Origin: Escherichia coli
GTDB lineage: Bacteria > Pseudomonadota > Gammaproteobacteria > Enterobacterales > Enterobacteriaceae
Assembly: GCF_024223415.1 (NCBI RefSeq)
Contig: NZ_CP100500.1
Length of the DNA stretch: 64,000 bases
Reading direction: 5' to 3' (one strand)
Shown: positions 62,680 through 63,628 of the stretch, piece by piece
Layout: every line of letters starts with the position of its first letter
Numbering within the stretch: position 1 is the stretch's first letter
The notes under the pieces: model-generated
The model's database searches: none
Told to the model about the DNA's origin: nothing
What the model saw: the letters and a program-made list of their open reading frames with translations, nothing else
Program-made: the position numbers and the translations under genes

Positions 62680-63575
62680 TTCATAGTCCTTACTTTATGA
62701 AGGTTGCAGGAAGAAGGAATTACGTAAATACTGAGGGCACAGAAAGGCCGTACCACGGCATTAATAAAAGAGATAACCAGCAGCACAGACAACCTGATAA
62801 AAATGTTTTGTATTACCTCATTACAGCAACGAGGTAATATTTCAGAATACAGTGAGACTCTCTTAAACTGAGGACCAGTACGACTTACAACGGTAAAAAC
62901 ACACCTCATATAATTGAGTTTCAGGAAGCACCATTCAATTACTGTCTCCCTGACATTCACAAAAGTCAGTATCGGGTAGCTACAGGCAACATCGCTATTG
63001 ATACTCCCGCACCATTAAATAAAAACAGAGACTCTGCAGAGAGAGCCTACAGATATTTAACCTCTCCACATAAGAATAATGGTATACAGTCCCCACACCA
63101 TCAAAAGATTGCTTCAGGATAATATTTCCTCATACCTGTAAACAGTACTGAGCCATAACACCAAAACTGAAGATAACATGCACTGATACGTACTTAACAT
63201 CAGTTACGTATCAGACACACATCAGTGGATTAGCTCCCTCAACATCACAGCGAACATTATAATTTATCGCACTACTAAACACTCTCTGGCTGTATGAAGG
63301 CACATGCATTACGCATCTACGGAATGGTCAGCATACAGAGGAGTGACATTGTAAACAGATAACAGATAACATAACTCCCATTAATAATACTAATTAACCT
63401 AAATTATTTATTGAATACGAGAACAATGAGGGAACCTCCTCATCCAGGACTAATGCCAGCAATATCCTGAGCAACACTCTATCCAATAGTAAATAATGGT
63501 TATAACTGTTATATTTACTGACTGACCTGTACCAGCGTTCTGTAATACAACAACGCTGAGATGCTAATGGCATAA

Positions 63576-63602
63576 GTCTCCTCCGCTATTTACGGAGGAG
63601 AC
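63576..63602 (-). terminator. possible terminator hairpin downstream of the 63629..63946 gene
   Basis: Perfect 10-bp stem GTCTCCTCCG / CGGAGGAGAC with 7-nt loop, 27 nt past the stop; weak U-tract. Confidence 0.35.
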
Positions 63603-63628
63603 TATATGTTACTCAACGATTAAGTCAT

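Follow-up and report, generated by a model that had tools for sequence, protein, structure and literature searches.

The subject of this analysis is a gene-free tract of 0.9 kb, positions 62680-63628 in a 64,000-nucleotide stretch of Escherichia coli DNA (contig NZ_CP100500.1; the whole stretch is called the window below). The tract is exactly the gap between two genes on the minus strand, a YfjI-family gene and a gene of the YfjJ or "inovirus Gp2" type, referred to here as yfjI and yfjJ. It sits in a genomic island of the P4-integrase type, in which the order is int, alpA, yfjI, the tract, yfjJ and a gene for a TOTE primase/helicase. The tract is probably an unannotated cis-control or origin region of yfjJ, which encodes a predicted Rep-like protein. 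It contains a conserved AT-rich box and a series of palindromes, the coordinates of which are collected in Table 1.

A gene-free tract inherited in two parts

The earlier note on this DNA, made from the letters alone, had described the tract as AT-rich and as lacking a credible open reading frame (ORF). Both descriptions hold. The G+C content of the tract is 0.37-0.40 (39% overall) as compared with 0.44-0.53 in the flanking genes. On the minus strand of the tract, G exceeds C and T exceeds A; the sign of this skew is that of the nearby coding strands and its magnitude is larger. The longest ORFs, of 103, 59, and 46 aa, had no match in Pfam or NCBIfam, the aligned tracts of relatives are separated by indels whose lengths are not divisible by three, and the substitutions among these relatives displayed no 3-base periodicity. 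A decayed gene was rejected on the absence of periodicity and of hits in Pfam and NCBIfam, a six-frame search of large protein databases not having been run. The 59-aa ORF was similarly rejected as a gene: it is not conserved and has no family hits, it stops at differing points in relatives and, in relative L001, it is shortened to the two codons 'MP*'. Its variable end, the truncation in L001, and the lack of a transmembrane-like stretch also led us to discard a type I toxin-antitoxin system at 63573-63394.

A homologous tract occupies the same position, between the YfjI-family and Gp2-type genes, in 1459 of 5426 complete E. coli genomes, with approximately 77-87% identity. Homologous tracts also occur on metagenome contigs, and they were unannotated in every record examined. 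None of the 5426 genomes carries the variant found in the window (>95% identity over its length), yet the backbone at the cydDC end of the window matches the chromosomes of sequenced E. coli strains with 100% identity. Because of this combination, the island allele of the window appears to be rare or recombinant. The tract had no match in the phage collection. The CP4-57 island of strain K-12 was considered as an equivalent and set aside, its gap between yfjI and yfjJ being only approximately 150 bp long, unrelated in sequence, and devoid of the box.

The anatomy of the tract was drawn from 39 distinct relatives, in which two parts are inherited separately. The first, approximately 730 nt from 62680 to ~63400, travels with yfjJ in O104:H4, TOE17, and Escherichia albertii, which have a gene other than yfjI upstream. 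The second, approximately 215 nt (~63413-63628), travels with yfjI, also where an insertion sequence (IS) element cuts the tract. Such elements have inserted into the tract in several strains, in which the flanking genes are kept. The end parts of the tract were 82-93% identical to those of the window, versus ~80% at the third codon positions of the flanking genes, and the middle (63063-63355) was 68-74% identical and contained many indels. This mild constraint, with conserved ends and an indel-rich middle, is more in keeping with a leader or spacer than with the gene of a structured RNA. Overall, the tract is a composite control and spacer region of the island backbone, weakly constrained except in the block containing the stem-loop at the 3' end of yfjI and in the box.

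The conserved box and the palindromes

The box is the only block that the tract has in common with the upstream regions of 12 other Gp2-type lineages, the proteins of which share 32-61% identity. The distant homologues compared came from Erwinia, Citrobacter, Yersinia, Limnobaculum, Rouxiella, E. coli plasmids, and enteroaggregative E. coli (EAEC) 042, and each of these genes is preceded by 430-1430 bp without called genes. On the sense strand, the box reads (G)AATT(A/T)(A/G)GGTTAATTA(A/G)TATTATTA...(G)AAGT, its ending being given also as GAGT. It hardly varies across the E. coli and E. albertii tracts that were compared. It always has the sense orientation of the gene and is present in a single copy at each locus and in the window; a scan of 0.95 Mb with a position weight matrix detected no further site above 26 bits. 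Judged by this pattern of conservation, the box appears to be the functional core of the yfjJ-linked part of the tract.

In five lineages (L098, L100, L101, L108, and L113), the box lies 150-162 nt from the ATG and the intervening sequence is unalignable. Elsewhere, the box and the start codon are 80 nt apart in Rouxiella (L110), where the match to the box is weaker, 268 nt in one lineage, ~300 nt in another, and 720-1155 nt in five: the window (722 nt), L109, L115, L116, and L118. The long spacers between box and gene are mutually unrelated in sequence and contain no ORFs, and they apparently arose repeatedly. The box is located in a divergent intergenic region in six lineages. It holds a -10-like hexamer, T(A/G)TTAT, which is TATAAT in EAEC 042. 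Around the TAGTATT of the box, only a 5-bp A/T stem can form, which is lost in L099, L100, and L113, and the flanking inverted repeats are specific to lineages.

The short heptamer repeats beside the box depend on the lineage in both copy number and sequence, L012 holding ATACCACCAC twice at this position. In a contig of the Citrobacter freundii type (L099:3245-3357), a 22-nt iteron-like unit, TATTATTAGTGGAAGTATCTAT, occurs in three copies at a spacing of 45-46 nt and overlaps the 3' half of the box. A scan with 16-mers returned mostly chance matches. Similarly, an exact 18-mer, AAGGTTAATTARTATTAT, in three viral contigs (L103, L104, and L107) was rejected as probably due to chance: its flanks are unlike the box and it falls below the threshold of the full-length matrix. 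The three are related gokushovirus-like contigs (IMG/VR microvirus) with the 18-mer at the end of a 255-aa ORF; in L104, it is carried in a terminal repeat. Gokushovirus-like viruses also use an HUH initiator.

The tract is rich in palindromes. It contains four perfect stems of at least 8 bp versus a mean of 0.20 in 1000 dinucleotide shuffles, none of which reached four. Tiles of equal size from the same window averaged 0.46 such stems, with a maximum of 3. The three perfect hairpins reported in the earlier note, A to C in Table 1, all exist: the position first given for A, 62815-62845, is a few bases off, that of B is exact, and the stem of C is one pair longer than had been noted. Each of the three folds with a z-score of −3.9 to −5.3, equally on both strands. 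The z-score of the whole tract is approximately −3.9 on both strands, and the strongest local signal is at 63480-63680.

The conservation of the hairpins among related islands, which the earlier note had singled out as informative, is uneven. Hairpins A, C, and D recur; hairpin B does not, and none is conserved outside close E. coli relatives. Relatives carry one to five perfect hairpins each, with A, D, and C as the recurrent sites and lineage-specific hairpins in the middle of the tract. In hairpin A, the outer arms, ATTACC/GGTAAT, are almost invariant around a variable center, and the arms reach 12 bp in some relatives. In the alignment of this hairpin, 92% of cells are paired and there is one double change (T-A to G-C, in L078); its covariation score of 0.088 versus 0.074 in shuffles is not significant, 97 of 500 shuffles reaching it. 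Hairpin B is partly kept, with one double change of A-T to G-C; it is deleted in some relatives, and others have a different hairpin nearby. Of the 35 relatives compared, most have a perfect hairpin D. The close relatives are too similar to one another to support a strong covariation test, notably for hairpins C and D. The palindromes first seen in the window are features of the E. coli lineage.

Every yfjI-linked relative has hairpin C. Its minus-strand folding energy is −28.7 kcal/mol, with a z-score of −5.35, and one of its arms reads GGAGGAG whichever strand is considered. The stem has 12 bp in most relatives, with a sole mismatch that is C.A when read on the plus strand and G.U when read on the minus; because of the latter pair, it fits an RNA stem at the 3' end of yfjI. 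The stem of 11-12 bp corresponds to the GC-rich stem-loop of an intrinsic terminator. It has no U-tract, the tail being UAUGCCAUUAGC, and was not listed by the terminator scanner, so it is not a canonical terminator. Hairpin C is probably the 3' stem-loop of the yfjI transcript. At 63575-63610, owing to the hairpin, both strands carry GGAGGAGACT and then (T)ATG, from which the non-conserved 59-aa ORF begins on the minus strand and a 5-codon ORF, with its ATG at 63606, on the plus strand.

Table 1. Features of the tract and the adjoining genes, in coordinates of the window
Feature	Positions	Strand	Remarks
Whole gene-free tract	62680-63628	minus	From yfjI-type stop to yfjJ-type start; minus (gene-sense) strand G+T-rich
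YfjI-family (DUF3987) gene, 3' end	63629-64000	minus	Stop codon 63629-63631; continues beyond the end of the window
YfjJ/'inovirus-type Gp2' (YagK-YfjJ) gene, 187 aa	62116-62679	minus	HUH Rep-like (predicted); C-terminal RGRPR motif
TOTE archaeo-eukaryotic-primase and helicase gene, 783 aa	59604-61955	minus	Next gene after the yfjJ-type gene
Conserved AT-rich box, 37-41 bp	63372-63412	minus	Start of the yfjJ-linked module; only family-wide conserved element
Heptamer repeats, CAGATAA twice, then CATAAC	63353-63375		Directly downstream (sense) of the box
Hairpin A, palindrome TATTACCTC/GAGGTAATA	62811-62839		132-160 nt upstream of the yfjJ ATG
Hairpin B, CTGATACGTA/TACGTATCAG	63183-63214		10-bp perfect stem; within the indel-rich middle
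Hairpin C, AGTCTCCTCCG/CGGAGGAGACT	63575-63603	minus	11-bp perfect stem, 7-nt loop; 25 nt past the yfjI stop
Hairpin D, AGTAAATA/TATTTACT	63488-63519		8-bp arms, 16-nt loop; fourth perfect hairpin
Minor 7-bp hairpin, CAGCGTT/AACGCTG	63533-63558		One mismatch in most relatives
Terminator-like stem, then CUGUUUUUAUUU	63015-63053	minus	Weak; z −0.43 versus shuffles; stem replaced in L003-type relatives
Small GC hairpin, GCCGU-GGU-ACGGC	62747-62759	minus	Proximal part of the putative leader; sequence varies in relatives
Shine-Dalgarno region, AAGGA at ~62687-62691	62680-62716	minus	Can pair with upstream UCCUU; z −1.6, not significant
59-aa small ORF	63573-63394	minus	Strong Shine-Dalgarno sequence in hairpin C; not conserved

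The neighboring genes also vary among relatives. The TOTE primase-helicase gene is intact in the window, but IS600/IS3 insertions interrupt it in several E. coli genomes, or only fragments of it are left (L001, L004, and L011). Between alpA and the YfjI-family gene, L003-L006, L008, L010, and L013 have a separate ORF of 49-74 aa annotated as 'DUF3987 domain-containing' or a pseudogene fragment. The presence of such a separate DUF3987 fragment upstream of yfjI in relatives suggests that the replicase-like yfjI gene may be split or N-terminally decayed in this island family. Finally, the 5' part of the yfjJ coding sequence, at 62480-62640 and outside the reported tract, is unusually structured in windows of 120 nt, with z-scores of −4.8 (plus strand) and −3.3 (minus strand), values comparable to those of the hairpin C region.

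Candidate functions of the tract

The protein encoded downstream of the tract bears on each of the functions considered. Eighteen homologues, with identities down to 34%, keep R36, D38, E79, H87-x-H89, Y157-L-A-K160, and a C-terminal R-G-R-P-R. We take the set of R36, D38, E79, HxH, and Y-L-A-K to be the motifs of an HUH endonuclease and RGRPR to be an AT-hook-like tail. In Pfam, there were sub-threshold matches to REP_ORF2-G2P and YagK_YfjJ_C, and homologues carry the name 'rolling circle replication-associated protein' in NCBI and UniRef. AlphaFold2 gave a confident model, with a predicted local distance difference test score (pLDDT) of 90, and the predicted fold is Rep-like, being nearest to the Rep protein SIRV1 ORF119 and the nuclease of parvovirus NS1. 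A sequence-profile search of the PDB with the protein returned nothing significant. Based on the conserved residues and the model, the YfjJ-type protein is predicted to be an HUH Rep-like nickase with HxH and Tyr157 as catalytic residues. The family is essentially absent from the phage collection, with one weak match in Acinetobacter. The plasmid carriers among the matches listed range from 30 kb to >1 Mb, and none is a small rolling-circle replicon. In species-representative genomes, a search with the protein yielded only 3 loci. The literature searched contained no experimental characterization of the YfjJ/YagK-type family, and searches on yfjI/yfjJ, TOTE, YagK, and DUF3987 origins found nothing on the tract.

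With a probability of roughly 0.45, we read the box as a silenced promoter/operator that is followed by a long structured leader for yfjJ. In the proposed mechanism, the box would act as the promoter/operator of the yfjJ unit and would be kept silent by H-NS-type proteins. A protein of the island probably binds the box as well, the candidates being the AT-hook-bearing HUH protein itself and AlpA. The 690 nt from the box to the start codon would be transcribed as a long, fast-evolving, G+U-rich untranslated leader. Within it, the palindromes at 62811-62839 and 63183-63214, together with the helix covering the Shine-Dalgarno sequence, may tune transcript stability, read-through, and translation. 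At the other end, 63413-63628 would be the 3' trailer of yfjI, in which the stem-loop at 63575-63603 may mark or protect the 3' end of the transcript.

We favor a promoter/operator because the box has a fixed orientation, a spacing of ~155 nt in five lineages, a divergent intergenic location, and a -10-like hexamer. The leader is suggested by the gene-sense G+T skew of the spacer and by recurrent inverted repeats that contain the Shine-Dalgarno sequence, analogous ones being found in the distant homologues L098, L101, and L115. A published response also argues for a silenced promoter: in EAEC 042, orf3192 (DUF3296) and its neighbor orf3191 respond to Aar and the H-NS family (PMC5570504). In this strain, EC042_RS17130 has the box, a gene-free upstream region of 1.43 kb, and an adjoining H-NS-family gene. 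Among the options raised in the earlier note, an H-NS-bound regulatory region comes closest to this reading, with indirect support from the AT-richness of the tract and from the regulation published for EAEC 042. Both EAEC 042 (L118:31401-33046) and a 62-kb E. coli plasmid (L116:1-2503) have an H-NS-family gene upstream of the long gene-free region; in both, a 191-aa gene and an AlpA-type gene come after the Gp2-type gene.

Several observations weigh against a promoter and leader. A leader of 700 nt is unusually long. At the box, there is no conserved -35 element among the aligned lineages, three lineages have G in place of the key A in the -10-like hexamer, and no sigma-70 promoter passed the promoter scanner on the minus strand in or near the box. 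Moreover, the 25-40 bp of contiguous conservation exceed what a promoter needs. The hairpin z-scores, being alike on both strands, give no pointer to RNA rather than DNA. As for EAEC 042, the identification of EC042_RS17130 with orf3192 is likely, based on gene order and with no accession match, and the homologue is only 32% identical to the protein of the window.

The main rival explanation assigns the box, with or without the neighboring palindromes, to the HUH protein as its nick site or origin, which would make it a double-strand origin or an origin of transfer (oriT). We consider this explanation doubtful. According to it, the RGRPR hook would bind the box after excision of the island, the box would melt, and cleavage of one strand would set off rolling-circle replication or transfer. 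In this view, the tract would correspond to the intergenic region that precedes gene II in filamentous phages, and YfjJ-type proteins would be domesticated inovirus-type HUH initiators that replicate or mobilize excised Enterobacteriaceae pathogenicity islands by rolling circle. Consistent with a nick site, the hallmarks of catalysis, HxH and Y-L-A-K, are kept across homologues of 35-100% identity that have a Rep-nuclease-like predicted fold and are named by NCBI and UniRef for rolling-circle replication. In addition, an invariant AT-hook-like RGRPR is paired with an AT-rich cis box. A contiguous, single-copy box of 25-40 bp that is fixed in orientation and conserved far beyond the rest is what nick regions typically look like. 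Next to it are short direct repeats that differ by lineage, the three 22-nt units of the C. freundii contig overlap it, and the tract has its excess of palindromes. We also count for a nick site the core of the box, TTA(A/G)TATTAT, which we take to resemble, weakly, the TA(A/G)TATT↓AC of circoviruses and geminiviruses.

Other properties of the family argue against nicking at the box. Apart from the weak Acinetobacter match, no member of the family is on a phage, and the plasmids listed are of 30 kb to >1 Mb. The box does not lie in a conserved hairpin loop, the 5-bp A/T stem being lost in several lineages. The palindromes are not conserved outside E. coli, and the other long spacers have little or no excess of them. 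The fixed distance of 150-162 nt to the ATG suits a promoter at least equally. Finally, a resemblance to the phiX174 origin, 12 of 13 positions between ATTAATAATACTA of the window and ATTAATAACACTA, is limited to the window sequence and absent from the family consensus, and was treated as chance.

It is improbable that the tract is mostly a functionless spacer, composed of decayed genes or of junctions of module recombination, with palindromes that are due to chance or extinct elements. The identity of 68-74% in the middle, below that of synonymous sites, and the large indels are what such a spacer would display, as are the IS insertions that leave the flanking genes in place and the unrelated spacer sequences of other lineages. 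However, the excess of hairpins is highly non-random and reappears at three fixed sites in relatives. Conservation in the box and in the yfjI-proximal block exceeds that at third codon positions, and no remnant of a protein emerged when the ORFs were scanned against Pfam and NCBIfam, the only such searches run.

One or more independent small or antisense RNAs encoded in the tract are likewise improbable. Examples would be a plus-strand RNA running from ~63395 to hairpin C and a minus-strand RNA that ends at the terminator-like site near ~63020. Stable hairpins, plus-strand promoter-like hexamers at 63359-63388 within the conserved block, the minus-strand terminator-like site at 63053-63029, and some wobble-compatible substitutions are consistent with such RNAs. 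However, promoter-like sites number 6 versus 5.6 in shuffles, the terminator-like fold has a z-score of −0.4, the covariation is not significant, the z-scores are symmetrical between strands, and the middle of the tract is rich in indels. The small RNA that the earlier note had envisaged also gained nothing from a covariance-model scan: in two permissive scans of the tract, no Rfam family reached its gathering score, the best being STnc630 with 19 bits versus 55 and all others scoring below 21 bits. STnc630, which belongs to the proP 3' (proP-basS) region of Salmonella, was dropped as a chance resemblance of hairpin C. An RNA in the form of a leader or 3' trailer is compatible with these scans.

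The two other options of the earlier note fared differently. For an origin, no iteron family was found in the window: the tract contains only short repeat families of two copies, and a family of three copies, that of the 22-nt unit, was seen only in C. freundii L099. An origin of the nick-site type is kept in play by the HUH gene and the box. Nothing was found in support of an attachment region, attachment-site repeats (tRNA gene) not having been searched for; the tract lies between backbone genes, and in relative L001 the integrase end is ~5 kb further on. In sum, the tract is neither a known RNA nor an iteron origin; as far as examined, it is not an attachment site either. An iteron-type origin for the P4-alpha-like YfjI (DUF3987) helicase, as in P4 and the phage-inducible chromosomal islands (PICI) and Staphylococcus aureus pathogenicity islands (SaPI), where the origin follows the replication gene, is highly unlikely: the tract is AT-rich, directly downstream of yfjI, and well conserved beside it, but it has no direct-repeat family of at least three copies, its AT-rich box segregates with yfjJ and not yfjI, and the separate 65-aa DUF3987 fragment ORF upstream of yfjI in relatives suggests a split or decayed replicase.

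Relation to known systems

YfjJ/YagK-type genes are part of the backbone of many E. coli genomic islands. What is new here is a defined cis element, 63372-63412, the prediction of catalytic residues (HxH and Tyr157) and of an AT-hook-like RGRPR tail, and two competing mechanisms. If the box is a nick site, islands usually thought to be immobile would have a replication or transfer function. If it is a promoter, the tract would be a control region of a horizontally acquired operon, ordinary in kind but unusually long and rich in palindromes.

Among known systems, the intergenic region of the Ff phages (M13/f1/fd) is likewise a hairpin-rich, gene-free stretch of several hundred bases before an 'inovirus Gp2'-type initiator gene, and the protein downstream of the tract belongs to Pfam and NCBI families named after inovirus G2P. 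In contrast to the phage region, with which it shares no sequence similarity, the tract lies in a chromosomal island that has no packaging or coat genes, and nicking is only predicted. Moreover, the hairpins of the tract are not conserved across the protein family, and the protein has no close phage homologue. The double-strand origins of HUH Rep proteins, such as bind and nic of pMV158, the origins of circoviruses and geminiviruses, and the 30-bp origin of phiX174, resemble the tract in having an AT-rich core beside the Rep gene and, in places, adjacent short direct repeats, the core of the box being reminiscent of the nonanucleotide. They differ in that the core of the tract is not in a conserved hairpin loop and that the gene resides in large islands and large plasmids.

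AlpA/lambda-Q-type antitermination, as at PalpB of Pseudomonas aeruginosa, where an AlpA-binding element is combined with a terminator further downstream, offers another comparison. The island family encodes AlpA, in relatives, past the end of the window, and in other lineages AlpA is directly downstream of the Gp2-type gene. In addition, GGTTAATTA lies just upstream of the -10-like hexamer, where the AlpA-binding element sits, and the putative leader contains a terminator-like hairpin. However, this hairpin is weak and not conserved. The published P. aeruginosa element is GGGACG-N5-GGTA (PMC7969949). An AlpA-type antitermination unit was considered for the tract, but this motif is not present there. 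The TnpA proteins of IS200/IS605 and the REP-associated tyrosine transposases, which are small single-tyrosine HUH proteins that bind DNA hairpins, are also among the closest systems. Finally, the tract resembles the H-NS-silenced promoters of acquired genes, exemplified by orf3192 of EAEC 042 (probably EC042_RS17130), in having an AT-rich upstream region in an acquired island and the same box.

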